Part shown: positions 30,916 through 56,607 of the stretch, in pieces
How the letters are laid out: the number at the start of each line of letters is the position of its first letter
Position numbering within the stretch: position 1 is the first letter of the stretch
Source: a virus
Lineage: Duplodnaviria > Caudoviricetes
DNA length: 64,000 nucleotides
Direction: 5' to 3' (one strand)
Virus record (IMG/VR): IMGVR_UViG_3300046820_001270
Location: 160,001-224,000 of that record
Notes under the pieces: model-generated
Told to the model about the DNA's origin: nothing
Seen by the model: the letters and a program-made list of their open reading frames with translations, nothing else
The model's database searches: none
Made by a program: the position numbers and the translations under genes

Positions 30916-31012
30916 ACAGAGTTTGGCGGTTTGGTCGCCGTTAAATGATAACTCTGTAAACGAAAAGGAGGTATTCTAAATCTCGACAAAGGGTCTTCGG
31001 ACCTTTTGTTGT
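30916..31012 (+). ncRNA. Candidate small RNA A
   Basis: TATTTATA at 30907; stem ACAGAGTT/AACTCTGT enclosing GGCG/CGCC; ends in a 10-bp C(UUCG)G hairpin plus T-rich tail; no ORF. Confidence 0.55.
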
Positions 31013-31019
31013 TTTATAG

Positions 31020-31043
31020 AAAAACCCATCCGAAGATGGGTTT
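31020..31043 (-). terminator. tmRNA terminator
   Basis: AAACCCATC-TTCG-GATGGGTTT followed by Ts on the minus strand. Confidence 0.8.
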
Positions 31044-31045
31044 AA

Positions 31046-31443
31046 GGTGGAGACGAAGGGAGTCGAACCCTTGTCTTTCCTGTTCAACAATAAATGACTA
31101 CACGTTTATTCAATTGGTTCTCAATTGACAAATAGAAGGTTAATATCAGGAAACCATCAATACTGTTCCTAACCGGATTTTCAAGAGCCGTCAAGTTTGC
31201 TCCAACACTCTAGGGTTATGTTCCACCGAAAGGACTTCTGTTCCTAGGTTATATGTCCGTCGACCCGTGCGTAGAGGCTAATCTAATTAGGCTGCTACTT
31301 TAGAAGTTGCAAGAATACCTGCAATTTCCATTGTGTTGTAAACGTTGTCGTTTAATTTTCTTCACCGTGGATTTAAGTCATAGATGAATTCTGACTACGT
31401 GCCATTTACCCCTGATACCTGAAATCAAATCCAAGGCGTCCCC
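31046..31443 (-). ncRNA. ssrA: tmRNA; predicted tag (A)DNVYNTMEIAGILATSKVAA*
   Basis: GGGGACG/CGTCTCC acceptor stem with G3-U70; T-arm AAGGG-TTCGACT-CCCTT; internal ORF ending GCA GCC TAA. Confidence 0.93.
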
Positions 31444-31456
31444 AGTAAATAGAATA

Positions 31457-31464
31457 CAAATATA
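31457..31464 (-). promoter_or_regulatory. Bacteroidota -7 element for the tmRNA
   Basis: TATATTTG 13 nt upstream of the mature 5' end. Confidence 0.65.
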
Positions 31465-31523
31465 GATAAAAAAGGGTTAAAAAACTAATTTTAACCCTGA
31501 ATAACCTATATGTTAGAAAAAAA

Positions 31524-31721
31524 TTACTTAGTAGTAGTTTTCTTAGCTTTTGGTGCTTTATCAGTTACTTTTTTAACTTTAGCTTTAACTTCCGCTACTT
31601 TCTCTTTTACAACTTTAACTTCGGCAACAACCTCAGTTTCTAATTGTTGTAATTCAACGGCCTTTTCAGCCATAGTTCCAGTACCTAAAAGTTTCTTAAT
31701 TAAATCAATAATTTTTTTCAT
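31524..31721 (-). CDS. Small Lys/Val/Ala-rich basic protein (start revised from 31748)
   Basis: Motif at 31735 precedes ATG 31721; histone-like tail. Confidence 0.65.
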   Translation of the reverse strand: MKKIIDLIKKLLGTGTMAEKAVELQQLETEVVAEVKVVKEKVAEVKAKVKKVTDKAPKAKKTTTK

Positions 31722-31754
31722 AATTTTTCTTTTATATAAATATATCAAAAATGA

Positions 31755-32435
31755 CTAAATTGTCAAGGGTAGTTGTTTTTCAAATAACGATTCAAACAGT
31801 AGTTTATTCTTTTCCCATTGCTTATTAGTCATACCTACAGATTTATGAGTAATCCCAAATTTGGTGGTTAAACCGACTTTAACACCTTCCATATAATTCT
31901 CAACACAGAATAAAATATCATAGAAATGAAACCCTTCAAACTGTTCGTTAAATTCCTTCTTTAGAATACTTTTATGAACCATAAAGAACAAACCATCCAC
32001 AATTACAACATCTTTAAGAACATCGTTAAATACCCCCTTAGAATAATGATTTACGTGTCTTTTACCCTCATGAAGATGACCAACTACGCCAAACATATTT
32101 TCACGGTTTTGCCACCACATTCCACTCGTTAATTTATCGGTCCCCGCAATCCCAATAATTCCATATTCAGGATGTTTCTCAAATAACTTAACAATCTTAG
32201 GTGTCATATTAGGTGTCTCCAAAATAAGGTCATCGTGCATGAAAACAACGATGTCGTTAACACTTTCTTTTAACCCTTTGTTATAGACTTGTGTTAAAGA
32301 CATTTCACCGTTATTTTCATACATCAATATTTCTGTATTTGGATGGGAAAACATTCTTTTTACATGATCGTAATATGTCGGATCAATTTTTCTTGTGGAT
32401 ATAACCACACTTACAACTTCATTATTCTTCGACAT
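31755..32435 (-). CDS. GT2-like glycosyltransferase
   Basis: VVFMHDD, GIIGIAG, VDGLF, GFHFYD. Confidence 0.8.
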   Translation of the reverse strand: MSKNNEVVSVVISTRKIDPTYYDHVKRMFSHPNTEILMYENNGEMSLTQVYNKGLKESVNDIVVFMHDDLILETPNMTPKIVKLFEKHPEYGIIGIAGTDKLTSGMWWQNRENMFGVVGHLHEGKRHVNHYSKGVFNDVLKDVVIVDGLFFMVHKSILKKEFNEQFEGFHFYDILFCVENYMEGVKVGLTTKFGITHKSVGMTNKQWEKNKLLFESLFEKQLPLTI

Positions 32436-33171
32436 ATAATACTTGTATTTTACCGTTAATTTCAACTAAGTCAACAACGATTGGTTTATTGGTTGGTTCA
32501 TATCCTGTGGTACATATCGCCGCATTTACAAATACAGTTTTTTTACCGTACTGAACCCCATATCCCTCGTGAATATGACCAAACACATTTACCAATGGAT
32601 TAATTTCACCAATTCTATTTATTAAACATTCACAACCAACGTGTGTATTTGGTTGTCTCCAATTATTAACTAAATCTCCATATCCATTAGGTGGACTATG
32701 TGTGATTAAAACATCCGTATCCTCAGGTATCATATTCCATTTCTCCTGTAATTCAGTTCCTAATCTCGGTAAGTTAAATGCCCAATCATAGAACCAAGGT
32801 TGCCAAGGACTACCATAAAATTTGATAGGTCTTGAAAATTCGGGAGTTTCAATTGTAATAAAACTGTCCTCTAAATAAGTCACGTCAGATTGTGATAAAT
32901 TTTCAGGAGACATTAAATGACTTAACCATTCATATGTACCTTTATAAGAAGGTTTATTAATTCTTTCAAAACAATAATCATGATTACCTGATATGAATAT
33001 TTTTTGATCCCATCCACCTAAGTTTTGAAACCAATCGATGAAATCTTTAACATCTTGTTCTCCACCTTTATTTGATAAATCTCCCGCATGAATTAATATA
33101 TCACCTTTTGGTAAAGGATGTTCCATCTGATGATGAAGGCTGTGGGTATCTGATATACATACTAATCTCAT
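32422..33171 (-). CDS. Calcineurin-like metallophosphoesterase (MPPED/239FB-like)
   Basis: CISDTH, IHAGD, GNHD, ITHSPP, FGHIHE; TATATTTG promoter at 33176-33183. Confidence 0.9.
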   Translation of the reverse strand: MRLVCISDTHSLHHQMEHPLPKGDILIHAGDLSNKGGEQDVKDFIDWFQNLGGWDQKIFISGNHDYCFERINKPSYKGTYEWLSHLMSPENLSQSDVTYLEDSFITIETPEFSRPIKFYGSPWQPWFYDWAFNLPRLGTELQEKWNMIPEDTDVLITHSPPNGYGDLVNNWRQPNTHVGCECLINRIGEINPLVNVFGHIHEGYGVQYGKKTVFVNAAICTTGYEPTNKPIVVDLVEINGKIQVLYVEE

Positions 33172-33204
33172 AAAACAAATATACAAATTATTTTCGAATA
33201 TGCA

Positions 33205-33232
33205 TAAAAAAAGTCAGAATTTCTTCTGACTT
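33205..33232 (-). terminator. Terminator downstream of the large ncRNA
   Basis: AAGTCAGAA-GAAA-TTCTGACTT followed by a T-tract. Confidence 0.85.
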
Positions 33233-33243
33233 AATTTTGTATA

Positions 33244-34115
33244 GGCCGTATGGTTTTACATACATTCACCACCACTTTGTTTTTCTAAACAAAGAAAATA
33301 AAACTCTGAGAATACAAGTTTTAACAATCGACTTAGGAACATTATTTGTTTCTTTCCCTTTCCACAACCTTTTGAGTTGTACCGATCAATGACGGTCAAT
33401 TAGATTAACCAATCCTAAAGTCATCAGATACTCTTTTATTACTTATTACTCAACAAATCTGCCGACCTGTTTCAACCTTGCGGGTTTAGAGAACTTTCTT
33501 AAAAATCATATTGGGATTGAGTCCCTTTATGGCCGTGAACCCCTCACGACTAAGTAGTCACCTGTCTCCAATGACTGACGAACACTTTTTCTTGTTATAT
33601 TTAAGTTGTTAAACCGTAATTAACAAAATTTAGTTATCCGAATTGGGAAAGTAGTGGTTCGTCACCTAGCCAAGTTATCTTTTGAACAACTCGATACTAA
33701 ACTACTCTCTGAAGTGTCCCCACCTCCATATTTTTGGTTTCCTTCGAGATTAAACCCTTGGTAGGATTTATTCAAGGACACTAACAGCACCACCTGTTTT
33801 TTGTCATACCTTCCATCTTACGATGCTACGGTTTTAAGACCACCATTGTATTGAATTACGCAATAATAAAGTCGGATAACTATACTTCTTACATTAATTC
33901 TATGGATTATTCTTATTGATGTTCCCATCTCAACCAAACAACTCGGATTGCTTGGTCATCCAACCCTTTCGCTACGGAGTTACCCTCACTACTTCAGGTT
34001 AAATGATATTCCACTTGTCTACTCGAGATCCATTTCTGAATCCGCAACTTACCCCAACCAAGGGTTTGTCACTTTATCCCACTTTCGTGGTTTATTTTAT
34101 TGACTATAGACGGCC
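33244..34115 (-). ncRNA. Large structured RNA, ~872 nt, probably GOLLD-class
   Basis: No credible ORF; own promoter (TATCTTTG 34167-34174), boxA-like site and terminator; ends pair (GGCCGT/ACGGCC); many hairpins with GNRA loops; adjacent to tRNAs. The family name is an inference. Confidence 0.7.
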
Positions 34116-34125
34116 AATATTTTTA

Positions 34126-34135
34126 TTCAAAGAAC
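34126..34135 (-). promoter_or_regulatory. boxA-like antitermination motif GTTCTTTGA
   Basis: Also at 37970-37979 and 38761-38770, always inside stable-RNA transcription units. Confidence 0.55.
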
Positions 34136-34205
34136 ATTATCTTTTGGGTTATTCACCCTTCTTTTACAAAGATAAGAAACTATTTCTAAAAAAAGAAATT
34201 ATTTC

Positions 34206-34430
34206 TTAATTATTTTCTACTTTATTTTTTTTAGACTGTTTTTTAGATGATACTTTATTATCACTTTTACCAGTTTTATATTCTGGATTCTTATAAAGTT
34301 TATATTCGGTTTTAGGTGCAAATGCCCAATTACCTCCTTTAACTCTTAAATCTGCTTCATTATTATCGATTCTTACCATTTCACCGATTTCATGACCCTT
34401 ACTTAATTTAATTAATTTAATACATTTCAT
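34206..34430 (-). CDS. Small basic protein with a canonical SD sequence
   Basis: GGAGGT 5 nt before ATG. Confidence 0.7.
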   Translation of the reverse strand: MKCIKLIKLSKGHEIGEMVRIDNNEADLRVKGGNWAFAPKTEYKLYKNPEYKTGKSDNKVSSKKQSKKNKVENN

Positions 34431-34484
34431 AGTTTACCTCCACGTTTTTTAAAAGATAAGTAATAATATTTTAAAAACAAAATT

Positions 34485-35663
34485 TTATTCACATTTTCCA
34501 CAATTTATTTTACAAACCTTTAGTTCGTTTCCACTACCTAAATCGTTATAAATAAACTTATCTAATATGTTGGTTTCCAATACTTCTTTTAATTTTTTAC
34601 CCTTCAATGAGAAGCTGTCAAATCCCAAATCTAACATTTTATTTAATATTTCTTTTTGAAACGAGTTTTCAAATCCATCCGAATAATTCATTGATATTGA
34701 TATATTAGGAGGTATTAAACAACACGGCATTATCATTTTATTATATGTAATAAATAAATGATAATCATCCGATTTAAGATCTGACGGATTTGAATAGTTT
34801 TTTGAATAACATGTTTGTTTTTTAATTAAATCAAAATTATTAATTTCATTTTGAGTAAAATTGTAATCGGTTCTCTCATACACTTTAGAAGTCCCTTTAA
34901 GTTCTTGTGATTTTTTAAAATCACCAATTTCTAATTCTTTAACAGGTATTGATGGAAGAGTATTTTTTAATTTTTCAAGGTCATCAAATTTCCATATTGT
35001 GTCATAGAATGGAGTATATTCTTCATTTTTAATTTCAGTTAAAAAATGAGTCAATTCACTTTTCATATTATGAACTGAAATTTTACCACCATTTGAAAAT
35101 GGTTTTTTAAGTAATAGATTACCTTTACCTAATGATTTAATAAAGTCAATCATCGGTATTATTTGATCCGTAGTTTCAGACCACATTAAAAATTGAATAA
35201 ATAACTTTTCTTTTTGACAATATTTGGTAAATGAATTGATGTTTTTAAGTATATTATCCCATTTAACATTAACCCTATATAATTCATTTTTTTCTCCAAT
35301 ACCATCTAACCCAAACATAATTTGCACACCTAATTTACCTAATTCTTCATAATCATTACTATTACCAATACCTCCATTGGTATTAATATTAACGGCAATT
35401 TTTGGGTTTAGTCGAATAAAGTATTTGATAATTTCTACCACATCTGGATTACCCATTGGATCTCCAAAATTACCACAAAGAGTTAATGTTTTTAAATTTG
35501 TTATTATGTCAATATCAATCGTATCAACAACATCATTTATTGACCAATATGTGTGTTCAAAATTACCGTAATGACCGAAACGTCTTCTTGAACAAACAGT
35601 ACAACCAGCATTACAAATTGATGAGATTTCAAAATCTAAATGTTGGATTGATTTTATGTTCAT
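34485..35663 (-). CDS. Radical SAM protein with C-terminal Cys cluster (SPASM/twitch-like)
   Basis: CNAGCTVC; MPCC; CKINCGKC. Confidence 0.88.
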   Translation of the reverse strand: MNIKSIQHLDFEISSICNAGCTVCSRRRFGHYGNFEHTYWSINDVVDTIDIDIITNLKTLTLCGNFGDPMGNPDVVEIIKYFIRLNPKIAVNINTNGGIGNSNDYEELGKLGVQIMFGLDGIGEKNELYRVNVKWDNILKNINSFTKYCQKEKLFIQFLMWSETTDQIIPMIDFIKSLGKGNLLLKKPFSNGGKISVHNMKSELTHFLTEIKNEEYTPFYDTIWKFDDLEKLKNTLPSIPVKELEIGDFKKSQELKGTSKVYERTDYNFTQNEINNFDLIKKQTCYSKNYSNPSDLKSDDYHLFITYNKMIMPCCLIPPNISISMNYSDGFENSFQKEILNKMLDLGFDSFSLKGKKLKEVLETNILDKFIYNDLGSGNELKVCKINCGKCE

Positions 35664-35809
35664 TTTTAAAATTTATTTTGAATGAGAATAATCAATAGGG
35701 ACAGTTCCTTCACTTCTGTCTTGTAACTCCGTACCAACTCAGCACTATTGATGTTTGATGGATGAAAAACATCTATTCTTCTTGTGGACTTCCATCGGAG
35801 TCCCATATC

Positions 35810-36040
35810 TTACAAAAATCTACTACCTTGTCTTCTTCTTGCTTCTTCAGCTTCTCTATACCAACGAATCCACGTTAATGCTACATCAATTGGTGCTAAG
35901 ACCCAAGCCATCATTATCACCATAATTGTATCTAACTCAGGTGAACCACCTGTTGGATCGTTAGAATACCTTTTGTTTAAATTTTTAAACAACTGGTATA
36001 AACAATAAATAATACAAATAACATAATAACCTAAAAACAT
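35810..36040 (-). CDS. Small membrane protein
   Basis: Two hydrophobic segments. Confidence 0.6.
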   Translation of the reverse strand: MFLGYYVICIIYCLYQLFKNLNKRYSNDPTGGSPELDTIMVIMMAWVLAPIDVALTWIRWYREAEEARRRQGSRFL

Positions 36041-36092
36041 AATATAAATTTTTTATAAATTACGAAAAATATCCCAAAAAACAAAATAACAT

Positions 36093-36908
36093 TTAAATTA
36101 ACATTTGCTTAAATTCCGTATCTGAAATTAATTTTTGATCATATCCAAAAAAATAAGACTCATTTGAGGTATACTGACATACTTTAGAATATTCATTTTT
36201 AGTTACTTTATCATTATAGTTTATGTTCAAATGATGTTCCCTTTGTCCATATAAATTTTTAAAATATGAATAGAATAACATAAACATAAAATTAAATTCA
36301 GCAGGAAAATCAGACAAAAACGGAAATTCTATAGTGTCAGTATTAAATGCAGTTTTTTTTAATTTATCATTAAACCCAATATTTTCTTTAATTATGGTGT
36401 TATTATTTGATTTAATAACATCGTTTATAGATTCAATTTTGATAAATTTAAAATTATTTTTAAATTTATTTTTATATAAAAGATTTAAATCTCCGTCAAG
36501 TACCTCTTCCTTAAAAAAAGAATTATCGTAAAAAAGTAATTGTGAACTCTGAGGTATGTAATGAAAATCATCACAAAATTGTAAAAATGTCCTATAATTT
36601 ATAATATACGAATTAATGTCAGTTATTTTGGAACTCCTTAAATAATCATTAATTTTTATTTTTTCCTCATGATCATTATCAAATTCAATCATTTGTTTCA
36701 TCCAAAAATATGAAGAAAAAAAACGATCAATAGGGTCTCGTGTAAAAATTATTTTTTTATCTAAAGATGTAGTTGTGTCAAATGAAAATTCAATTTCAAT
36801 TTTAAAATGTTGAAATAAATGACTTAATGTGGTATAAATTAAAGTATGTCCATTTTTAACAGGTATAAAAAAAGAGGTATTGTATTTCTTTAAATTAAGT
36901 ATTTCCAT
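36093..36908 (-). CDS. Sulfotransferase family 2-like protein
   Basis: FIPVKNGHT; RDPIDRFFSSY; HYIPQS. Confidence 0.7.
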   Translation of the reverse strand: MEILNLKKYNTSFFIPVKNGHTLIYTTLSHLFQHFKIEIEFSFDTTTSLDKKIIFTRDPIDRFFSSYFWMKQMIEFDNDHEEKIKINDYLRSSKITDINSYIINYRTFLQFCDDFHYIPQSSQLLFYDNSFFKEEVLDGDLNLLYKNKFKNNFKFIKIESINDVIKSNNNTIIKENIGFNDKLKKTAFNTDTIEFPFLSDFPAEFNFMFMLFYSYFKNLYGQREHHLNINYNDKVTKNEYSKVCQYTSNESYFFGYDQKLISDTEFKQMLI

Positions 36909-36925
36909 TATCTAATATATATCGG

Positions 36926-36997
36926 TATTCCCGACGGGATTCGAACCCGTATTACCTCCGTGAAAGGGAGGTGACCTAACCCTTAGTCGACAAGAAC
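36926..36997 (-). tRNA. tRNA-Glu(UUC)
   Basis: Cloverleaf, anticodon loop CTTTCAC, T-loop TTCGAAT; GU-rich acceptor stem. Confidence 0.88.
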
Positions 36998-37021
36998 AAA
37001 TAATCACTCAAATGGGTATTT

Positions 37022-37118
37022 GTTATAGTATCACAATCGGTGCACTGTACTCTGGTTAATTACTCCGTCTGTACCCAACAGCTTTATGTTGGCTTATAAT
37101 TGGCTACTTTACTATAAC
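37022..37118 (-). ncRNA. Candidate small structured RNA within the tRNA array
   Basis: 9-bp closing stem GTTATAGTA/TACTATAAC; CCAACA/TGTTGG hairpin; GG-AGTAATTAA-CC loop. Confidence 0.45.
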
Positions 37119-37149
37119 TCACATTTTTATTTGTGATTAAAAAAGATCC

Positions 37150-37258
37150 CGTTTTTTTTCTACATTTAGCCCAAGCACCAGTAGGTCAGTGTTTTGGGTT
37201 TTGACGCGAGAAGTCTACAAGGTTTCCCCATTAGACCGTTACCACGGGCAAACTCTAC
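37150..37258 (-). ncRNA. Candidate structured RNA with a possible pseudoknot
   Basis: CCGT/ACGG, GTCTA/TAGAC and CCCAA/TTGGG stems; loop CTAC complementary to downstream GTAG. Confidence 0.35.
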
Positions 37259-37260
37259 AG

Positions 37261-37347
37261 CGGAAGCGTAGGGATTTGAACCCCAGATACCTTTCGGTAT
37301 GCCAGTTTTCAAGACTGGTGCAATAAACCGGACTCTGCCACACTTCC
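37261..37347 (-). tRNA. tRNA-Ser(UGA)
   Basis: Cloverleaf with long variable arm, anticodon loop CTTGAAA. Confidence 0.93.
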
Positions 37348-37348
37348 A

Positions 37349-37909
37349 TTATTTATTAGAAACAATATATCCATTATATTCCAATACTTGAATACATTTT
37401 TCTAAAAATTCTTCTACAGAAATGTCACTTTTCATTTTATTTATCGAAAAACTTATTAATCCCGCATTTTCTATAGTGTTTTCACCACCTTTAGATGCCG
37501 GTGTAATATGATCAATACTATATGATTTAGTCTCATATAAATTAATTGGTTCACCCGATAAATAACATTTAGGTTCGTTTCCTATTTTTAACAAAAAATC
37601 TCCTATATTAAAAGTAAGTTCAGGTTTAGTAATTGATATTTTTGAACCTTCCCTTCTTTGAAAATCTCTAACTTTACTGAGAACTCTTTTACCTAAATTA
37701 TTCCTATATCTAAAATCATATAGTTTTTTTTGTAAAATAAATTCAGGTTTAGATGTTCTTTTAATACTTCTATTTTTTGTTTTTTCTTTTTGGTTATCAC
37801 CCAAATAATATGAAATTGTCGATTTACTACAATTCAATTCTTTCATTATTTTATTATAGGTATAACCTTCTTTTTTTAATTCAATAATTCTATTTCCAAG
37901 CTCTGTCAT
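37349..37909 (-). mobile_element. Free-standing HNH homing endonuclease (HTH + HNH) inside the tRNA array
   Basis: CSKSTISYY HTH; CYLSG..IDHITPASKGGENTIEN...N.MK. Confidence 0.85.
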
Positions 37910-37984
37910 GATATTCTTTATATATAAATATCAGGTTCGAACTAAAAAGTTAAAAATCGAACTTCTTATTTCAAAGAACGTTTG

Positions 37985-38058
37985 CGGAACAGACGAGACT
38001 CGAACTCGCGACCCCGGCAGTGACAGTGCCGTATTCTAACCAACTGAACTACCATTCC
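37985..38058 (-). tRNA. tRNA-Asp(GUC)
   Basis: Cloverleaf, anticodon loop CTGTCAC. Confidence 0.93.
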
Positions 38059-38063
38059 TAATT

Positions 38064-38153
38064 ATCACATCAAACAGGGATTCTACTTCCCGCAGCACGA
38101 AATTGTATCTTACTTAGCCCTACGTTAGCGGTATGGGTACCTGAAGATATGAT
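38064..38153 (-). ncRNA. Candidate structured RNA
   Basis: ATCATATC/GATGTGAT and CAGG/CCTG stems; CCC-TAC/GTA-GGG hairpin; CCGC/GCGG possible pseudoknot. Confidence 0.4.
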
Positions 38154-38156
38154 TTG

Positions 38157-38232
38157 TGGGTGAGTTTGGATTCGAACCAAAGACCTAAAGTTTATGAGAC
38201 TTTTGCTCTAAAACCAGCTGAGCTACACACCC
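38157..38232 (-). tRNA. tRNA with CAU anticodon (elongator Met or lysidine Ile2)
   Basis: Cloverleaf, loop CTCATAA, no initiator features. Confidence 0.88.
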
Positions 38233-38256
38233 TATTAGTCTTTTCCTTACCTCTTA

Positions 38257-38317
38257 ATAACCACATTGCCATCCCGGTGTTACTGCCGGGTGCTTACCAC
38301 TTGCGTGGAGTGATTAT
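38257..38317 (-). ncRNA. Candidate 3-way-junction RNA (~61 nt)
   Basis: ATAATCAC/GTGGTTAT; CCAC-GCAA-GTGG; CCCGG/CCGGG. Confidence 0.5.
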
Positions 38318-38324
38318 CACGTTG

Positions 38325-38666: not shown

Positions 38667-38668
38667 TG

Positions 38669-38906: not shown

Positions 38907-38913
38907 ATTTTAG

Positions 38914-48166: not shown

Positions 48167-49240
48167 ATGAAAAAAGAACAAATTCCTACGGGATGGAAAG
48201 GTGGTTTTCCCTCAGAAAATCAAAAACAAATGTTATATCCTACTTCGGATTTAACTTCATTACCTATGTTGGGTAATATGGATAACATCGATTTACTACA
48301 AAGACAATGGGGTGTTAAATGGCCAATGTTTAGTTGGAATACTCTAAATGGAGAAAAGGATCCAAAGCGTTGTTATGTACAATTTGCTCCTTATATCTCA
48401 AGAATAGGATATACCAATGAAGGTAGAATTTATTCCATAATCTGTCCTCAACAAGGGATGTGGATTGGGGATGAAATTTGTATCAATGTTGAAGTAACAG
48501 TTACAGGACAAAGAGGTTGGGTTAATGAAACCACAAAAGAAATTTCTGCAGATATGATGGTTGAGGGAAAAATTTGGTTAACACCAAGTGAACATCAAGG
48601 TAGTCATTTAAAAGCAATTTGGCCATTATTAAAATACGGATCTCACAAATACCCTATCGACAAAGAAAACGCTATTCGTGTTGGAACACACCTACCAGGA
48701 AATCCTAAAGAACCTATATTCCAACTCGGAAAAGGTCTATCCTCAAGATTTAAAAATCCAGAATATGCTTTACACGAAGAAGGATCATTTACAACAGGAC
48801 ATATTGATGTTGAGATAGGAGGAATGATCCCCACAAACGATGAAAAATTAGATAAGTTTAATCAATATTTTTTAAACATTTTTAATATAGCTACGGGTAA
48901 TATGCTACAAAAGGGTAATGTATTATCGTGGAATTTATGGTTTAATTCACCTGAGTTAGTTTCAGTTCCTGAATGGAAAAATCACGCTGAATATTGGCGT
49001 ACTTCTATAAACGCCCATCACGGTTCACCAGGTGGTGAGGGAACAAGTGCAAGATATTTTGACGGAACATATTTTGACACTAAATCATTTGCTGTTAAAG
49101 AGATTGTTAAAGAAATTTTAAATCACACCGTAAAAAATTCCGTGTTGAGGAAGGTTTTAATATTCACTATAGAACATTTCCCTAAAACAATTTTGGATAT
49201 GTTTTTAAAGAAAAGTAATAAAGATAAAACAAATACATAA
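48167..49240 (+). CDS. Hypothetical protein
   Basis: Long Trp/Pro/Gly-rich globular ORF. Confidence 0.75.
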   Translation: MKKEQIPTGWKGGFPSENQKQMLYPTSDLTSLPMLGNMDNIDLLQRQWGVKWPMFSWNTLNGEKDPKRCYVQFAPYISRIGYTNEGRIYSIICPQQGMWIGDEICINVEVTVTGQRGWVNETTKEISADMMVEGKIWLTPSEHQGSHLKAIWPLLKYGSHKYPIDKENAIRVGTHLPGNPKEPIFQLGKGLSSRFKNPEYALHEEGSFTTGHIDVEIGGMIPTNDEKLDKFNQYFLNIFNIATGNMLQKGNVLSWNLWFNSPELVSVPEWKNHAEYWRTSINAHHGSPGGEGTSARYFDGTYFDTKSFAVKEIVKEILNHTVKNSVLRKVLIFTIEHFPKTILDMFLKKSNKDKTNT

Positions 49241-49983
49241 TGACAAAAAACGAAATACTATACAATGTCGGTTTAACCGACAAAGTTTATTCAGAACAAA
49301 AAGATATTGATTTTAAGGCACAAAGATTAAAATTAATTAAATGGATTGAGGATAAAAAATCAGATACTCAAGGATTTGTTGCAACTAAAGACAACACAAT
49401 TTATATTGTGTGGAGAGGTAGTTCTTCTAAAAAAGACTTCCAAAACGACGCATCAATAGATAAGGTACCTTTTGTTGAGGAAGGTGAAAAAGTTCACATT
49501 GGGTTTAAATCTTGTTGGGATGCCGTTAAGGACGACACATATAAGGCTTTAGATATTGCACTTAAAAACTTGGGTCAAGAACATTCAATTGACAATATTG
49601 TTGTTTGTGGACATAGTTTAGGTGCCGCAATTTCAACCTTATGTGCATATGAGATCTATTCAATTTATAAGTCAAATAAAATTATATGTTGTACAATTGG
49701 TAGTCCAAGAGTTGGTAATAAAGTGTTCAAACAAAACTTTGACAAATCTCCAATTGAATCATTAAGGATTGTAAACAATTTAGACGTTGTTACTCGTGCT
49801 CCAAATATCGGATATCATCATGTTAATACCGAATTACGTATTGATAGTGAGGGTAAAATCAAAAAATGGATGATTGATTGGCAAAGAGTTGGTGAATACC
49901 TTAAAGCCGTATTTACAGGTAGGACAGCTAAAGATCATATGACAAATAACTACATAAGTGCATTAAATAAATGGAACCCATAA
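49240..49983 (+). CDS. Class 3 lipase
   Basis: WRGS, VHIGF, CGHSLGAA, GSPRVGN, DVV..P, DH. Confidence 0.88.
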   Translation: MTKNEILYNVGLTDKVYSEQKDIDFKAQRLKLIKWIEDKKSDTQGFVATKDNTIYIVWRGSSSKKDFQNDASIDKVPFVEEGEKVHIGFKSCWDAVKDDTYKALDIALKNLGQEHSIDNIVVCGHSLGAAISTLCAYEIYSIYKSNKIICCTIGSPRVGNKVFKQNFDKSPIESLRIVNNLDVVTRAPNIGYHHVNTELRIDSEGKIKKWMIDWQRVGEYLKAVFTGRTAKDHMTNNYISALNKWNP

Positions 49984-49992
49984 AAAAAATAT

Positions 49993-50712
49993 ATGAAAAA
50001 ATTATTAACATTATTAATCGTTTGTTTAGTAAGTCTTGTTGCAAATAGTCAAACAATAGGTAAGACTAAGACAGAGGACTTTAAGGCGGACTTTGAAAAG
50101 AAAAAAGATATAAGTGCTTACTTAGATTATGAGGGTCCTCAAATACCCGTTCAAATCCTTAAATGTGGTATTTCTGACGAGGTGTATGAAATGTACCCTG
50201 AATTGAAAGAAAAACGTGTAGGTTTGGGTGTTGCGAATATTTCTATGGAATACCTTGAAAACTTAAACAGATTCAAATTTACCGAAGATAAAACGGAAAT
50301 TAAGAATCGTATGGTAAAACAATTTCAAGCGTCTGCCGCAGGTATTTCTGAAAACAAATTAGACGGTCGTGGTAAAATCAATTTAGCCAAGTATTTTGTA
50401 ACTATTGAGTGTTATGACTATTCCGTATCAGAAGACGAAACTATCAACCTAAAAGACGGTATTAAGGACAATATGGTTACTCGTATCGGTTTACAAGTTA
50501 GATTTACAGATGCGGAAACAGGTTTAGTGTTTGCAGGTTCAGGTTTAGGTGAGGCTAAAACAACGAGAGAATTAACTCTATTGTCTGACGCAACTATAGA
50601 CCCAATAAAATTTAACCAATCAACTATCAGTATTTCAACCAAAAAAGCATTAGACATTGCGGTTGCAAATATCCTTGATAGAATGATTAAAAAAGGTATA
50701 TTCACAAAATAA
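49993..50712 (+). CDS. CsgG/HfaB family secreted protein
   Basis: Signal peptide ending NSQ; GLGVANI..E.LENLNRF; GLQVRFTDAETG...GSG.GEA. Confidence 0.7.
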   Translation: MKKLLTLLIVCLVSLVANSQTIGKTKTEDFKADFEKKKDISAYLDYEGPQIPVQILKCGISDEVYEMYPELKEKRVGLGVANISMEYLENLNRFKFTEDKTEIKNRMVKQFQASAAGISENKLDGRGKINLAKYFVTIECYDYSVSEDETINLKDGIKDNMVTRIGLQVRFTDAETGLVFAGSGLGEAKTTRELTLLSDATIDPIKFNQSTISISTKKALDIAVANILDRMIKKGIFTK

Positions 50713-50942
50713 TGAAATACGAAATTGTGGACGTCCCACAACCTGAAAATTGTGAAAAATGTACCCCATGTTTAAGAATAAGATTAATGGAAATGGGGTT
50801 TATTACAGGTGAAAAAATTGAATTTGGAGAAAAAAGGTTAGGGTTATACACGGTTAACATACTAACCGAAAACGATCATGTTTCATCGGTCGTCGCATTA
50901 AGACAAGAAGAATTAGATAGAATATGTTTAAAAGGGGTTTAA
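50712..50942 (+). CDS. FeoA-domain protein
   Basis: RLMEMGFITGEKI...G...V...VALR. Confidence 0.7.
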   Translation: MKYEIVDVPQPENCEKCTPCLRIRLMEMGFITGEKIEFGEKRLGLYTVNILTENDHVSSVVALRQEELDRICLKGV

Positions 50943-50969
50943 TAACCCCTTTTTTAGTATTTATATAAT

Positions 50970-51149
50970 ATGAATAAGTTTTATAGAATATATGATGATA
51001 GAGTTTTCTTTGGTGTATGTGGGGGATTAAGCCACAGAACCAATATAGATCCATTAGTTTGGAGACTATTATTTTTCTTTCTAATATTTTCACCATTACC
51101 AATAATAACAGGATATTTATTAACCTCAATTTTAACTAAAAGCGTATGA
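50970..51149 (+). CDS. PspC-domain membrane protein (59 aa)
   Basis: Not in the ORF track; YR..DDRVFFGVCGGL..TNIDP..WRL. Confidence 0.85.
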   Translation: MNKFYRIYDDRVFFGVCGGLSHRTNIDPLVWRLLFFFLIFSPLPIITGYLLTSILTKSV

Positions 51150-51988
51150 AAAAAGTTTTATTAGTTACAGGATTAATTTTTATATTAATTCTAATATGTA
51201 CTTTCATGTTAAGTGCACAAGTGTCATCTTGGAGAAGTAATCCTCCACAACAAAAAACTGAAACACCAAGAGTTCAACCATCTGTATCACAACAAAATAA
51301 TGTGAGTCGATGGAGAACACAAACCGCACCTATTAGACCAGGTGATAAATATGAATTACCACAATCAACTCGTAGAGTTAGAGTACAAAATTGGGGTAGA
51401 CCAAATCCCTACGGTTACTATTGGAGTAATTGGGGTTGGTATCAACCATTCCCTTATATTTGGTACGATGACTTTGGATGGAGACAACGAAGTGTAATTC
51501 ATGTATATGAAAATGGTAGAAGAGATACGATTAAAAAAGAATCGGTTTATACCTCTTTTGGTATCGGACACACAAATAATAAACAATCGTCTTTTTGGGG
51601 TGCTGTAGGAAGAAAGAAAGGTTATTTTATTTTAGATTATACAATGTCTTACGATATTGACCAAAATAAATTTTACCCGAATGGTAGAATTAATGAAGTG
51701 GATTTCCCATTAAGTAAGAATGACTTTATCAAAGAAGGAACTTTATATCTCGGAGGAGGTAAAAGATTTGGTAAGTTAGGTGTTCACGGAATGATTGGTT
51801 TTGGGAATGAGAATATCAGATATCAAGGTAAAGATGATCTTGGAGGTATATCTTTTCCTAAATCAAACTCAAATTTTACAACACTTAAATTTGGTATTAT
51901 AAGAGACTTCAATTTCTTTACATTAAAATTAGACAGAGATCCAATAAGAAATTTTAATCAAATATCAATAGGATTACATAATAAGTAA
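51146..51988 (+). CDS. Secreted protein: Pro/Gln/Trp-rich N-region + small beta-barrel
   Basis: Signal peptide ending SAQ; C-terminal amphipathic strands. Confidence 0.6.
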   Translation: MKKVLLVTGLIFILILICTFMLSAQVSSWRSNPPQQKTETPRVQPSVSQQNNVSRWRTQTAPIRPGDKYELPQSTRRVRVQNWGRPNPYGYYWSNWGWYQPFPYIWYDDFGWRQRSVIHVYENGRRDTIKKESVYTSFGIGHTNNKQSSFWGAVGRKKGYFILDYTMSYDIDQNKFYPNGRINEVDFPLSKNDFIKEGTLYLGGGKRFGKLGVHGMIGFGNENIRYQGKDDLGGISFPKSNSNFTTLKFGIIRDFNFFTLKLDRDPIRNFNQISIGLHNK

Positions 51989-53430
51989 TGAAAAAAATAA
52001 TATTACTCATTTTTATTATTTTTAACGTTTTAACTTTAAAATCACAAACGTACACACAAACTTTTATAGATAAGTGTACGGGTGAAAAAAAAGTTGCAAC
52101 AACTACCATGATAAATGGTAATGCTCAAGTTTCATTTTATAGTCAAGTTAGAACATTTACACCAATTGAAGTTCAGACAGGACAATTACAAATATGGTTG
52201 CAAACAACATATGCCACATATAACTCTTTAGCTTGCCCTACTAGTCAAGTGGTACAACAAACTGTACAGAATACCGTAACTCAAGCAACTTCACAAGCGG
52301 CAAGTGCTGCCGCATCAAATGCAGCTTCAAATGCCGCAAGTTCGGCAGCATCTTCTTCGGCGTCCGCTGCCGCAAGTAGTACCGCATCATCTGCGGCTTC
52401 AACCACAGGTTCATCTGTATCAAGTAGTGGAGCATCCACTTCGTCATCAGCACCACCTCCAAGTTCATCATCAAGTAGTTCATCATCAAGTAGTTCATCG
52501 TCGTCTTCGTCTGAAAGTAGTTCATCATCTTCAAGTAGTTCTTCATCTGAAAGTAAAACAGAATCTAAATCAGAAACTAAGAGTGAATCTAAATCAGAAG
52601 AAAAGAAATCGGAAAGTAAGAGTGAAGAAAAAAAGGAAGAGAAGAAATCTGAAGAAAAGAAAGAAGAGAAAAAAGAGGAAAAGAAAGAAGAAAAAAAGGA
52701 AGAGAAGAAAAAGGAAGAGAAGAAAAAGGAAGAAAAGAAAAAAGAAGAGAAGAAAGAAAAAAAGAAAAGTGGCGTATTAAACCCAATGTTAATTGCTTCA
52801 GATTATACCGTAGCACAAAATGCGGATAAAAGTTTTGGTTCTATGTTAGGTTTGGGTTGGAGTAAATCTTCTTTAATGGGAGATGAATCATTTTCGGTAA
52901 ATTCAATTATTTGGACTAACCTTAAACAATTTGCACTTGGTGGTGGTTATACAAAAATGGATTTTAAAGATGGTAAGTTAAACGCAATACATTCATATGG
53001 AGTGACTACGGCGTATCTCGATGGTAATTATATGGCACTATTAGGATACACATGGATTAAACCACATCCAAAATACGGAACGTTTGGTTACAACTTAGGT
53101 GTAGTAAATTTATTTTTAAAAGGAACAAAACAAAAATTTGATTATAGTACTGTGACATCGGCAGTTGTGTTTTGGACTAAACCTTATCAGTACAGTAAAA
53201 AATTGTCTATATCTCCACAGGTATTCGTAATGTCATCTCCATTGTCATATAATTCTTTTATGGGAACATCTTCTGTTAATAGACATGCAGGATTTTTAAT
53301 GGGTAGTTCTTTTGATTATAAATTAAGTAAAAGATTTGGATTTAGTTTTAATTATAAAATGAATTTCTCAACTCAACCGTACTCACCAGTTTTACATAAC
53401 TTCTTAGTTGGTAGTAGAATGGTATTATAA
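51988..53430 (+). CDS. Outer-membrane beta-barrel with Ala/Ser-rich, poly-Ser and EEKK spacers
   Basis: Signal peptide ending KSQ; low-complexity linker; C-terminal alternating strands. Confidence 0.65.
   Translation: MKKIILLIFIIFNVLTLKSQTYTQTFIDKCTGEKKVATTTMINGNAQVSFYSQVRTFTPIEVQTGQLQIWLQTTYATYNSLACPTSQVVQQTVQNTVTQATSQAASAAASNAASNAASSAASSSASAAASSTASSAASTTGSSVSSSGASTSSSAPPPSSSSSSSSSSSSSSSSSESSSSSSSSSSSESKTESKSETKSESKSEEKKSESKSEEKKEEKKSEEKKEEKKEEKKEEKKEEKKKEEKKKEEKKKEEKKEKKKSGVLNPMLIASDYTVAQNADKSFGSMLGLGWSKSSLMGDESFSVNSIIWTNLKQFALGGGYTKMDFKDGKLNAIHSYGVTTAYLDGNYMALLGYTWIKPHPKYGTFGYNLGVVNLFLKGTKQKFDYSTVTSAVVFWTKPYQYSKKLSISPQVFVMSSPLSYNSFMGTSSVNRHAGFLMGSSFDYKLSKRFGFSFNYKMNFSTQPYSPVLHNFLVGSRMVL
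52440..52770 (+). repeat. Poly-Ser and (EEKK)n coding repeats
   Basis: tcatca/agtagt runs followed by gaagaaaagaaa-type repeats. Confidence 0.85.
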
Positions 53431-53517
53431 AAAAATCCTCGAAGTAGAAACCTCGAGGATATGACAAAAAATAAATGTACCTCTCTCCTGATACAATGTA
53501 AATTTAACTAAGATTTT

Positions 53518-53856
53518 TTAAAAAGTCAATTCTTTGTGGAGATTCAATACTTGACTACACATTTCGTAATCTTCATTTTCTTCAAAAAAAGGAAGAATAT
53601 CTCTTTTCAAAACAATCGTTTCACTACGGTGAAATTCAAATTCAGTATTCCAATCCGCGTCTTTAAATTTAGCAGATAATTTTAATACCAAAGATTTTTT
53701 TCTTGTGTTTTTAAATTCCTCAAAGATTTCAATTATTGATTTATAAATTTCTTCTTTGTTAGGTTCGTAAAAACTTTTCCAATCCTTATATACTCCATTG
53801 ATAATCAATTCTTTATAAGGTTTTTTTCTCCTCTTAGGTTGGTTTAGTTCTTCCAT
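53518..53856 (-). CDS. Hypothetical protein with a UVR-like motif
   Basis: EENEDYEMCSQVLNL. Confidence 0.6.
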   Translation of the reverse strand: MEELNQPKRRKKPYKELIINGVYKDWKSFYEPNKEEIYKSIIEIFEEFKNTRKKSLVLKLSAKFKDADWNTEFEFHRSETIVLKRDILPFFEENEDYEMCSQVLNLHKELTF

Positions 53857-53927
53857 ATGTTATTGGGTTTAGTTTAGTTTAGAAACGGAGATAAAATTAA
53901 GTAAATTTATCAAACAAAAAAAATTAT

Positions 53928-54416
53928 TTATTCGTTTTCCACACTTCGATCCCACTTTGCCTTACGGGCCTCGGGAGAAAGGTGGAAAACTTCATCTATG
54001 GTATGTTCAATTTGGACTCTTACACAAGTTTGAGGTAATCTACAATTCATTAAATAATTGTTGATATAACCCATCATATTACCCGCACCGATCGGGTTTG
54101 CCGAATGAATGTATATTTGAGGTAAAGGTATTTTTTCATTCATACTCTCACTTACAATATAACGACAACAATCCATACCAGTCCTTTCATTAATGTTGTT
54201 ATAATCCAACATATAATTATTTTTTACATTTGTATAGTATTCAACCATAGCACCCTCACCTAAATCGTGATCTAATGATATCACTTCAAATGATGACAAT
54301 CCGTGCAGTTTAATTTGTTTTATAAATTCGTCATAATCTCTCGCAACAATCCATTCAGAATCTTTTGGTGTTCTTATATCATCAAGGTATAATCTCAATC
54401 TTTTATTAATTTTCAT
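53928..54416 (-). CDS. Cyclic-phosphate-processing receiver-domain protein
   Basis: LYLDDIR, ISLDHDLG, TGMDC, IHSANP.G. Confidence 0.82.
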   Translation of the reverse strand: MKINKRLRLYLDDIRTPKDSEWIVARDYDEFIKQIKLHGLSSFEVISLDHDLGEGAMVEYYTNVKNNYMLDYNNINERTGMDCCRYIVSESMNEKIPLPQIYIHSANPIGAGNMMGYINNYLMNCRLPQTCVRVQIEHTIDEVFHLSPEARKAKWDRSVENE

Positions 54417-55476
54417 CTTTTTTAAATGGTTTTTCGTATTTAGGTTTCATTATTCTCCAAATAATTTGATCATATGGTTTTCCGTCCCACATTGCAAATA
54501 ATATTGGTCTATAAAATGTCTCAACATCACATTTTTCTAAATGTAATGCAAAATCTTTTTTTGTTGGCATTGGGTCTACATCTCCATATTTTCCATATCT
54601 AAAATAATCATGTATCTTACCACAATGTTCTCCAATTCTGTATTTGGCATATTCAAAAGAACTCACTTGTTGTTTAACCCACTTGTAAAATTCATCAGGT
54701 ACCCTATCTAAAAATTCATCCATAGGTTTTCCTTCTTTCATTAATTCCCAAATATCTTTTGATGAAAAATTGGTTAATATTTTATGTAATCTTTTATATT
54801 CTTCTCCTTTGATTTTCATACGAAAACCATTTTTAAAACGAATTACATAACCTTCTCTATCTTTACTAATTTCTTCTTTAAGTAAATCATATCCTTCTCC
54901 CCATGTTTTGTATGTCATAACAATTTCAAATCCAGATTCCTGCATCCAAAAAATACTACTATCAGGTATTTCATAACCAGTTTCAGTATGTATTGCACCA
55001 AGAACAACTAATTTTTCTTCACCTTTATAATCGACAACAATTCTATTTTCAGGATAAATAATTTCAAACAAATATGTATTGTCTTTTCTCCATGCACTAA
55101 TGTCATGTCTATCAAGAATTTCTTTACCCTTAATTGCCTGCGGTGATGTGAATGATCCGCGTGTTGCGAATATCCATTCATTTTCATAATTAAAAAGAAT
55201 ACCTAATGAACCATCCATTTTTTCATAAACAACATAATCTTCATTTGGAATATCTTCTGGTTTATGTTCTTCATAATTAAAAAATTTCTTAAATGGTCTT
55301 GCAACAATATCACCTTTTGAATTAGTAACTAATCCACGACATTGCAAAGTAATATCATCCCACAATCTTTCGTATTGAACTTTAGGAGAATAATTCCATA
55401 TGGTCAAATCTTTAGTAGGATGTGTTTGTTTATGCAACAAACCATCATTATAATATTTTTCTAATATGTCTAACAT
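54406..55476 (-). CDS. T4 Rnl1-like RNA ligase
   Basis: YEKMDGSLG, ATRGSF, FEII, EGYV, MKIK. Confidence 0.9.
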   Translation of the reverse strand: MLDILEKYYNDGLLHKQTHPTKDLTIWNYSPKVQYERLWDDITLQCRGLVTNSKGDIVARPFKKFFNYEEHKPEDIPNEDYVVYEKMDGSLGILFNYENEWIFATRGSFTSPQAIKGKEILDRHDISAWRKDNTYLFEIIYPENRIVVDYKGEEKLVVLGAIHTETGYEIPDSSIFWMQESGFEIVMTYKTWGEGYDLLKEEISKDREGYVIRFKNGFRMKIKGEEYKRLHKILTNFSSKDIWELMKEGKPMDEFLDRVPDEFYKWVKQQVSSFEYAKYRIGEHCGKIHDYFRYGKYGDVDPMPTKKDFALHLEKCDVETFYRPILFAMWDGKPYDQIIWRIMKPKYEKPFKKDEN

Positions 55477-55479
55477 AAA

Positions 55480-55722
55480 TTATTTTACGGGTCTGAATAA
55501 ACCGATGTTGTACGTATATTTTAACCAGTTTATAGACAAATATACACCACATATTTTGTTTTTCCAAATAGATACATGGGAATCGGGATGACAAGTATCA
55601 AAATAAAAATAAACAAAAGGTAATGGATATAATGACCATTGGTTTCTATGTAAGTTAGCGTGGAATTTCATCTTAGGTTTTGGATTTACGGATTCAACAT
55701 AAGAAGAAATAAATTGACTCAT
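55480..55722 (-). CDS. Hypothetical protein
   Basis: Coupled ORF. Confidence 0.55.
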   Translation of the reverse strand: MSQFISSYVESVNPKPKMKFHANLHRNQWSLYPLPFVYFYFDTCHPDSHVSIWKNKICGVYLSINWLKYTYNIGLFRPVK

Positions 55723-56150
55723 TAAAGTTTAACTTGAAATCTATTTTTCATTTGTTGAAGTTTATCTTCGGGAACTCCGTGGACATTTTCATTACCATGT
55801 CTGTTTTCAACAATTACTGTATGAACACGATAATTGTATCTTTCCGCCATTTTAAAATATTCGTCCATTTCCCATTCTTGGGTAAAAGTATTCGCAACAA
55901 CTATCCTAGCCTTTTGTTGTCTCATTCTTTCTGAGCATCTAAATTGACAATAGTTATGTGCTTCTTTTATTTTAGTCGGATCAAAATTGTAATCACCTTC
56001 TTTATCTTCAAAAAAATCATCAGCAGATAAAACCTCAGGTTCATCTGTACTTCTAAGTTGTAGTATGATTTTTGCTAATGTTGATTTACCTGAACCAGGT
56101 AATCCTCTCAATAATATTAATTCACCTTGTGTCTCGTTTACACTATCCAT
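55722..56150 (-). CDS. Polynucleotide kinase-like P-loop protein (AAA_33/N4BP2-like)
   Basis: LRGLPGSGKST, SADDFF, VANTF, NVHGVP. Confidence 0.85.
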   Translation of the reverse strand: MDSVNETQGELILLRGLPGSGKSTLAKIILQLRSTDEPEVLSADDFFEDKEGDYNFDPTKIKEAHNYCQFRCSERMRQQKARIVVANTFTQEWEMDEYFKMAERYNYRVHTVIVENRHGNENVHGVPEDKLQQMKNRFQVKL

Positions 56151-56203
56151 AGGAGAGATTTAAGATTAAAAAATTGGGGTTAGACTAATCCAACCCCGAT
56201 TTC

Positions 56204-56416
56204 TTATTTTACAGCTTCATTAGATACTGGTTTTTCAGCATCTTCTTTTACTGCACCACCTTCAACAGGGGCAACAGTTGAATCCGCTACCACTGCAGTT
56301 GTGTCTGCAACAGGAGCTACTGTAGAGTCAGTTGTTTGAGTTGCGGTTGACCCAGAACCACATGCTGATAGTGTTAATACAACACCAAGAGCCAAAATAA
56401 ATGTTACTTTTTTCAT
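56204..56416 (-). CDS. Small Thr/Ala/Val-rich lipoprotein (start revised from 56473)
   Basis: MKKV..LSAC lipobox; DSTVA/DTTAV repeats; upstream TTTG-N20-TATATTTA. Confidence 0.75.
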   Translation of the reverse strand: MKKVTFILALGVVLTLSACGSGSTATQTTDSTVAPVADTTAVVADSTVAPVEGGAVKEDAEKPVSNEAVK

Positions 56417-56460
56417 ATATAGTAAATATACGAAAATTAAATTAGAAAACCAAATCCAAT

Positions 56461-56562
56461 AAAAAAACCCCAACGAGATGTCGGGGTTTAAGGTCTTTGG
56501 GTGGGTTCAACCCCACTTACTTTTGAAAAAAACGAAAAGGTAATCGACAAAGAGAACCTATA
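56461..56562 (-). ncRNA. Candidate small RNA B with its own terminator
   Basis: TATTTATA at 56567-56574 (minus strand); TCTTTG/CAAAGA and GTGGG/CCCAC stems; terminator AAACCCCGAC..GTTGGGGTTTTTTT. Confidence 0.5.
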
Positions 56563-56607
56563 GTGATATAAATATATATAACTTTAGTAAAAAGTCAAGT
56601 ATTTACA

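Follow-up and report, generated by a model that had tools for sequence, protein, structure and literature searches.

The 64,000-nucleotide window analysed here, a stretch of a giant lake phage genome, carries two small protein-less RNA genes, A and B, placed 25 kb apart, whose sequences change in step across the phage's relatives so that they stay able to pair. RNA A copies the ribosome-docking signal of the host, and RNA B most likely covers that signal, although neither RNA has yet been shown to be made. The pair occurs in jumbo phages whose five tested relatives all encode bS21. No family for A or B was found in Rfam, where only weak terminator-driven hits below the gathering threshold were obtained, and literature searches, which did not extend to the supplements of large motif screens, returned no description of either RNA.

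The sequence-only reading had reported that two short blocks recur on the + strand at both loci, with promoter motif and terminator pointing + at the first and - at the second, and this observation proved to be real. AAACGAAAAGG-(14 nt)-TCGACAAAG is found at 30958-30991 (+) and AAACGAAAAGG-(3 nt)-TCGACAAAG at 56530-56552 (+), while 0 of 100 dinucleotide shuffles gave even one match; since the pattern was chosen after the fact, conservation is the stronger test. The blocks are 11 and 9 bp long, not two of about 11 bp as had been proposed. The motif TATTTATA lies at 30907-30914 on + and at 56574-56567 on -, and terminator-like hairpins point + at 30984-31011 and - at 56489-56465. The arrangement of the two loci is as follows.

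30907-30914 (+): TATTTATA, promoter-like motif of RNA A (phage late-type; inferred)
30916-31012 (+): RNA A, about 97 nt (ends approximate), without a conserved ORF
30917-30956 (+): 5' hairpin of A with tandem G.A pairs (AGA/GAU) and the invariant loop core UUGGUC (30931-30936)
30950-30957 (+): linker of A (block 0), complementary to the linker of B in most lineages; in this subclade it folds back on A's own 5' end instead
30958-30968 (+): block 2 of A, AAACGAAAAGG, pairing with B 56540-56530
30963-30976 (+): extended Shine-Dalgarno (SD) AAAAGGAGGUAUUC, exact 14-nt complement of the 16S tail variant GAAUACCUCCUUUU
30968-30984 (+): SD hairpin GAGGU/AUCUC, with an invariant AUC where a start codon would be (7-13 nt after GGRGG)
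30983-30991 (+): block 1 of A, UCG(A/G)CAAAG, pairing with B 56552-56544 or with A's own 3' arm
30984-31015 (+): terminator-like hairpin of A and U-rich tail
31045-31443 (-): phage tmRNA, a convergent neighbour, but not a constant neighbour of A
56567-56598 (-): promoter region of B, TATATATTTATA with an upstream T-run and TTGACT (56598-56593; TTGAC in 16 of 43 homologs)
56461-56559 (-): RNA B, about 99 nt with terminator (ends approximate), also the 3' UTR of clpC; no conserved reading frame
56530-56552 (-): seed of B, CUUUG(U/C)CGA, a variable 2-5 nt spacer and CCUUUUCGUUU
56517-56529 (-): linker of B (U-run plus variable segment), lineage-specific partner of A's linker
56501-56516 (-): hairpin of B with 5 co-varying pairs and a near-invariant GUUGAA loop
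56492-56495 (-): invariant GACC before the terminator, able to pair with B's 5' GGU or, untested, with GGUC in A's loop
56461-56489 (-): intrinsic terminator of B/clpC
56608-58656 (-): ClpC/ClpB-type ATPase gene, constant upstream neighbour of B

The blocks lie in two conserved, structured, non-coding units. The promoter-like motif is directional, because 46% of TATTTATA sites in the window and related loci are followed by an ATG ORF against 6% for the reverse complement, which also rejects the opposite, T4-like orientation TATAAATA. In all 43 homologs of A the motif lies 14-18 nt before the UUGGUC loop, and in several lineages it is preceded by an upstream terminator, so A is a stand-alone unit there. 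The fold of A has a z-score of -4.0, its 33-sequence alignment shows co-varying stems around the fixed loop core, and the G.U-containing helices conserved in A need the + strand. In B, aligned over 52 sequences, all five pairs of the hairpin show two-sided changes, and the locus follows clpC in 43 of 43 cases; in the homolog L452 the 5' GG is lost but GACC is kept. Promoter motif, terminators and the lack of a conserved ORF speak for two separately transcribed non-coding RNAs, but no expression data were analysed and the point is left undecided. Peptide coding was rejected: no ATG, GTG or TTG occurs 4 or more nt after the SD of A in 43 homologs, AUC-frame products are 1-40 aa long without conservation, and the frames of B fall into three classes (16/14/13).

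Compensatory change across related genomes, which had been named in advance as a check on trans pairing, was looked for in 43 distinct pairs of A and B located on the same contig, and conserved complementarity with compensatory change was found. One variable (R/Y) site gives G-C in 21, A-U in 14, G.U in 7 and A.C in 1 of the pairs (counting G in the homolog L125), while the same position of A mismatches its own intramolecular partner in 5 of 33 sequences. The G-C count is enriched and comes mostly from two clades, because many pairs with GCC in B were fetched with a GCC pattern, and a test of this single site restricted to tree-independent pairs was underpowered (2-4 pairs). Block 2 is one nt shorter in both RNAs in 13 pairs and discordant in 3, and one pair (L437/L410) has two A.C mismatches in block 1.

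A previously unnoticed feature is that the variable linkers of A and B form a third, lineage-specific complementary block, which is absent in the window's own subclade. Cognate linkers give -3.5 to -3.6 kcal/mol against -1.6 to -1.9 kcal/mol for permuted ones (z -4.6 to -5.9, p <= 0.003 with one genome per ClpC lineage, for 14, 22 or 28 lineages), while five control segment pairs are null at the lineage level. The unrelated linker solutions include UACUUAU/AUAAGUA, CAGACUA/UAGUCUG, AGUUUUC/GAAAACU, AACGAGAA/UUCUCGUU and CUGG/CCAG. Such lineage-by-lineage turnover of a complementary block between two loci 10-30 kb apart is, independently of mechanism, unusually clear comparative evidence for an RNA–RNA pair inside a phage genome.

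RNA A is also complementary to the 3' tail of 16S rRNA. Its 14-nt exact complement of a Bacteroidota tail variant was identified using the 16S tails of 31 Bacteroidota loci, with a net energy of -19.7 kcal/mol in this genome and about -20 kcal/mol on average over the 43 homologs, and its GUAUUC/GUGUUC variants match the natural tail variants GAAUAC/GAACAC. bS21 is encoded in 5 of 5 relatives tested, including one with 97% ClpC identity, and its gene lacks an SD. A bS21 gene in a genome of about 300 kb, as in the freshwater Bacteroidetes jumbo phages of PMC9723584, is present in these five relatives, but the gene would lie outside this window, membership of the clades in that paper was not checked, and the assignment of the present phage is not settled by these data. 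In Flavobacteriales, rpsU is typically the only gene with a strong SD, and bS21-less ribosomes recognise it (PMC9976891).

We suggest, with a probability of about 0.5, that A and B are two separately promoted small RNAs of a bS21-encoding Bacteroidota jumbo phage which base-pair in trans, A being a ribosome-tail “decoy” and B its dedicated “antidote”. In this view, A is a start-less copy of an extended SD able to grip the 3' tail of host 16S rRNA, most plausibly acting on 30S subunits whose tail is out of the bS21/bS18/bS6 pocket. B would nucleate on A's exposed linker and AAACG, zip over AAAAGG and clamp the far side (UCGACAAAG), and so lock the GAGGU/AUCUC hairpin; the whole 10-nt SD core would then be paired, rebuilding a nicked SD:anti-SD-like helix, and A could no longer bind ribosomes. 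Conservation, orientation, co-variation, complementarity to the 16S tail and the absence of an ORF rest on sequence comparison, whereas expression, actual pairing, ribosome binding and the notion that B inactivates rather than assembles A are our inference.

Weak points of this scheme are the lack of expression and binding data and the low net predicted binding in this genome. Net binding, calculated from MFE differences, averages -10.1 kcal/mol against -4.9 for shuffled B, but in this genome it is only -7.2 kcal/mol, which is not better than 35% of B shuffles; block 1 competes with A's own hairpin and the linker block is absent. The naked 16S tail binds A more strongly (-19.7 kcal/mol) than B does, so B could not strip A from a free tail without help, and a duplex scan of B's 5' 40 nt does not rank A first in the window. 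An opposite-strand energy control does not decide the strand, because the duplex favours A+/B- while net binding does not. The invariant GUUGAA and GACC of B and UUGGUC of A are unexplained by simple masking, and the host of this phage was not determined. No match was found among GenBank phage records, and the model of B gave no hit in 151 Bacteroidota genomes sampled, with limited candidate scoring.

The interpretation given in the sequence-only reading is partly supported by these data. Opposite orientation and trans pairing are supported by the co-variation, but the SD, proposed to be looped out, is only half so, because B covers AAAAGG and A's own AUCU covers AGGU. Invasion of the 5' arm of A's terminator is possible but not favoured for full-length A, as the two-block model lies 2.4 kcal/mol above the minimum. 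Its extension, in which B antiterminates A co-transcriptionally and the read-through RNA silences the convergent tmRNA, is not supported and seems very unlikely: although block 1 overlaps the 5' arm of the terminator-like hairpin and tmRNA is 28 nt away here, in many homologs the distance is about 300 nt to 2.5 kb, genes can lie between, tmRNA was not found in several long loci, the tmRNA's own hairpin at 31020-31044 intervenes in the window, and the GGUC-UUCG-GACC core survives invasion. The alternative of a shared DNA-level site, or of duplication relics whose RNAs do not meet, is also unlikely. Watson-Crick complementarity between opposite-strand RNAs equals same-strand identity in DNA, and the linker signal is strand-symmetric; however, block spacing differs (14 and 3 nt), G.U outnumbers A.C 7:1, lineage-specific blocks arise anew at both loci, both loci carry co-varying RNA hairpins, and block 1 has only 2-5 copies per genome with no regulon-like repetition.

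A more serious, though still tentative, rival is that A and B are two halves of one stable structured RNA, in which A's AUCU plus B's CCUUUU form a composite anti-SD (AUCU|CCUUUU compared with 16S ACCUCCUUUU), so that the junction rebuilds a nicked SD:anti-SD helix binding bS21 (host or phage) or another platform protein, while the UUGGUC loop, GUUGAA loop and GACC tail make tertiary or protein contacts. The composite is kept in most pairs, up to three blocks give 20-30 bp, invariant loops lie outside the duplex, the complementary GGUC and GACC would be brought close by the linker block, and every contig at least 90% complete searched from A also had B. In addition, bS21 binds an SD:ASD mimic in OLE RNA (PMC12054373), but binding of bS21 to the composite helix was not assessed here. 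On the other hand, A keeps 12-14 nt of complementarity to the 16S tail, extending into its hairpin loop, which a permanent complex would not need, A keeps its own competing 3' arm, the promoter contexts differ, suggesting different timing, and GGUC/GACC never vary, which leaves their contact without a comparative test. It is more doubtful that B is a broader antisense RNA acting mainly on mRNAs (the host rpsU leader or phage leaders such as 17410-17420) with A as its sponge. B's CCUUUUCG/UCCUUUCG is complementary to the 5' part of rpsU-type leaders, one phage leader has AAACGAAAAGA, and B's 5' region is single-stranded and more conserved than A's matching block; nevertheless, B's seed follows the changes of A, including the linker, it covers only 6-7 nt of an rpsU SD, and A's SD match to 16S is not explained.

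A bolder possibility, which is tentative but not excluded, is a phage two-RNA device aimed at the ribosome itself, where A pulls or holds the sequestered 16S tail of Bacteroidota 30S subunits (assisting exchange of host for phage bS21, or blocking host bS21 autoregulation) and the A:B complex rebuilds an SD:anti-SD helix from two chains that releases the ribosome or traps bS21. Why aquatic phages carry bS21 is an open question, and McNutt et al. (PMC9976891) speculate that such phages encode factors that help exchange bS21 and that host rpsU autoregulation counters them. A start-less extended-SD RNA with a dedicated partner is a concrete, small candidate for that missing layer, which can be assayed in F. 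johnsoniae with existing reporters and toeprints.

Among known systems, bacterial sRNA sponges (CrfA/SisA-D, PMC12559287; SroC/GcvB and QrrX/Qrr, reviewed in PMC13501541) share with the A/B pair the base-pairing of one non-coding RNA with another, unlinked one, which is presumably inactivated, and B, like SroC, lies at the 3' end of an mRNA. Here both partners are encoded by a jumbo phage, the putative victim seems to aim at 16S rRNA rather than mRNAs, the pairing spans up to three blocks round a hairpin and co-evolves by lineage, and no chaperone is known. Inactivation or destabilisation of A on pairing was not measured, although the model covers the SD core; whether A, as a sponged RNA should, regulates mRNAs by base-pairing is not answered by our data, since its best-supported other partner is the 16S tail and mRNA targets were not surveyed. 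The extended SD of rpsU (bS21) autoregulation in Flavobacteriales (PMC9976891) has a comparable 9-14 bp complementarity to the 16S 3' tail, but A is a free-standing phage RNA with AUC instead of a start codon, in a frame that is not conserved, without a bS21 ORF downstream and with a trans partner. The P6 helix of OLE RNA, an SD:anti-SD mimic bound by bS21 (PMC12054373), is similar to what the A:B junction would form, but OLE is a single RNA of about 600 nt from Bacillota, whereas here the mimic would be split over two phage RNAs of about 100 nt, and neither matches the OLE covariance model. Two-piece structured RNAs (two-piece tmRNA, tracrRNA:crRNA) also consist of separate chains held by conserved intermolecular helices, yet those are cut from one precursor or encoded side by side, while A and B are 10-30 kb apart on opposite strands.

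Some other resemblances were examined and rejected. B has a GNCGA motif and a T-loop-like GUUGAA loop and sits near RNA-repair genes, as would suit a bacterial Y RNA (YrlA), but the Ro60 (TROVE) gene was found in 0 of 5 large relatives, three of them at least 90% complete. A tRNA-like acceptor stem of B formed by CUUUG/CAAAG holds in this genome but not across homologs, while GGU/ACC holds but hardly varies. The resemblance of A's loop to the 23S A-loop was rejected because only UUGGUC is invariant and the closing pairs change.

The window is part of a jumbo phage: it carries GOLLD RNA, tmRNA and 11 tRNAs, together with a ClpC-type ATPase and an RNA ligase. The sequence-only reading had described two pairs of identical segments about 25 kb apart, lying in two sRNA loci that point in opposite directions, and this observation holds: both segments were found at the stated positions in loci A and B, with gaps of 14 and 3 nt, respectively, and no shuffled sequence gave such a match. 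The motif TATTTATA precedes locus A on the + strand and locus B on the - strand, and terminator-like hairpins point the same ways. The motif is directional, since 46% of its sites are followed by an ATG ORF against 6% for the reverse complement. Its role as a promoter is inferred from position; our literature search revealed no paper on it. Throughout the window this motif, which is the reverse complement of the T4 late promoter, often lies only 3–5 nt before an ATG, implying near-leaderless mRNAs, with a second peak at 13–15 nt. Neighbouring features are the following:

33303-33709 (-): GOLLD RNA (3' domain match, 298 bits), upstream of tmRNA and downstream of the tRNA cluster.
31045-31443 (-): phage tmRNA with a ~20-codon tag ending VAA, about twice the usual length, conserved in relatives.
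53928-56150 (-): RNA-repair-like cluster just downstream of B and a lipoprotein-like ORF, comprising an AAA_33 kinase, a T4-type RNA ligase and a DxD phosphatase-like ORF.

Both loci represent conserved RNAs. Pattern scans of viral contigs gave dozens of homologs of each. RNA A has a 5' hairpin with co-varying pairs and a fixed UUGGUC loop core, a single-stranded AAACGAAA(A)GG, a GAGGU/AUCUC hairpin and a 3' hairpin, and many conserved G.U pairs fix it to the + strand. RNA B has a seed region, a U-rich linker, a hairpin in which all five pairs show two-sided changes, an invariant GACC and a terminator. The 5' loop UUCAAAA of the GOLLD RNA could pair with the UUGAA of B, although this was not tested. 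Neither A nor B codes for a conserved peptide, and neither is in Rfam. B follows clpC in 43 of 43 pairs and is therefore also its 3' UTR, while A is a stand-alone unit, with its own upstream terminator, in several lineages.

To understand whether the two RNAs pair, we applied covariance models of each RNA to the contigs behind the loci, collected 43 distinct same-contig pairs and built a ClpC tree (ClpC identity to the window is 65–97%). Compensatory change across related genomes had been named by the sequence-only reading as a check on the pairing, and at the one variable site of block 1 (the downstream complementary segment of A) the pairs are G-C 21, A-U 14, G.U 7 and A.C 1. The tilt to G.U fits RNA pairing in the A+/B- sense, but the tree gives too few independent contrasts for a test, and the G-C class is enriched by the way in which it was fetched. 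Block 2, the upstream segment of A, is one base shorter in both RNAs in 13 pairs and discordant in 3, but 12 of the 13 belong to one clade. One pair (loci L437/L410) has a damaged block 1.

The strongest evidence was not part of the sequence-only reading. The linker of A before AAACG and the linker of B after CCUUUUCGUUU are free to vary, yet they are complementary within a genome in different ways in different lineages: UACUUAU/AUAAGUA, CAGACUA/UAGUCUG, AGUUUUC/GAAAACU, AACGAGAA/UUCUCGUU, CUGG/CCAG, and an 11-bp bulged block in the pair L439/L393. With one genome per ClpC lineage (14, 22 or 28 lineages), cognate linkers pair at -3.5 to -3.6 kcal/mol against -1.6 to -1.9 for permuted partners (z -4.6 to -5.9, p <= 0.003). 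Stripping the A- and U-runs does not weaken this signal, and five control segment pairs are null at the lineage level. The linker signal alone is strand-symmetric, so the assignment of strands rests on promoters, terminators and G.U pairs. This third block extends block 2 in the right antiparallel register, but the subclade of this window lacks it: here, the linker of A folds on A's own 5' end. Taken together, we consider it highly probable that the RNAs pair in vivo.

Two segments of A are of note:

30963-30976 (+): AAAAGGAGGUAUUC of A, the exact complement of a 16S tail variant found among 31 Bacteroidota loci.
30998-31015 (+): conserved 3' tail of A, CUUUGUUCGUU, which looks like a fusion of the two seed blocks of B and could pair with either A block, so A may be bistable on its own.

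The GUAUUC/GUGUUC variants of A match the tail variants GAAUAC/GAACAC. No start codon follows, and an invariant AUC sits at start-codon distance. Similar SD-like strings occur by chance in coding DNA of the window, so the argument rests on conservation in a non-coding unit. Five of five relatives encode bS21, from a gene without an SD; these phage bS21 genes (loci L425–L429) have A/U-rich leaders and would therefore escape rpsU-type autoregulation. In Bacteroidia, the 16S tail is held in a pocket of bS21, bS18 and bS6, in Flavobacteriales rpsU is typically the only gene with a strong SD, and ribosomes lacking bS21 recognise it (PMC9976891). Phage bS21 is expressed late (PMC9723584). Many Bacteroidota-phylum rpsU genes (host loci L490, L499, L500, L514 and others) start TTG GTC GG after a strong SD, the same letters as the invariant loop of A, but the order relative to the SD is reversed in A, so this is probably a coincidence.

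In the two-block model, the CCUUUU of B pairs with AAAAGG and the AUCU of A with AGGU, so that the 10-nt SD core would be fully paired to a composite AUCU|CCUUUU, one base from the real tail. The 2–5 nt spacer of B varies freely, as a junction should. While the conservation of both RNAs, the match of A to the 16S tail and the lineage-specific matching of the linkers are read directly from the compared sequences, we only infer that B masks the SD of a ribosome decoy, using the linker as a toehold (probability about 0.5). The same geometry supports the main rival, a lasting two-piece SD:anti-SD mimic that binds bS21 as OLE RNA does (PMC12054373), which we regard as possible but less likely. Against easy acceptance, net binding in this genome is only -7.2 kcal/mol, the minimum-energy complex leaves block 1 in A's own hairpin, the two-block form is 2.4 kcal/mol higher, and a naked 16S tail binds A more tightly than B does. 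These calculations omit coaxial stacking, proteins and 3' trimming. Over all pairs, the mean is -10.1 against -4.9 kcal/mol for shuffled B. A possible secondary target of the B seed was also seen:

17410-17420 (-): AAACGAAAAGA, three bases before the ATG of ORF 17406-17047.

The interpretation offered by the sequence-only reading is therefore supported in part: pairing of the two RNAs in trans is favoured, but its suggestion that read-through of A would act as antisense to the tmRNA is not supported. A is often convergent with tmRNA, but the gap runs from 28 nt to 2.5 kb and several long loci show no tmRNA, so antisense read-through is not the conserved function. The third co-evolving block, the composite anti-SD and the rejection of the tmRNA link are the new elements of this analysis.

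The A/B pair would work most like an sRNA sponge pair (PMC12559287, PMC13501541), but it is no member of a described family: when tested for membership among rpsU leaders, OLE RNA, Y RNA and the Rfam families, it failed in each case. One more feature of the window was recognised by eye, without a profile scan:

59224-59794 (+): two adjacent similar ~82-aa ORFs with a KTSC-like sequence pattern, next to a small heat-shock-like ORF.
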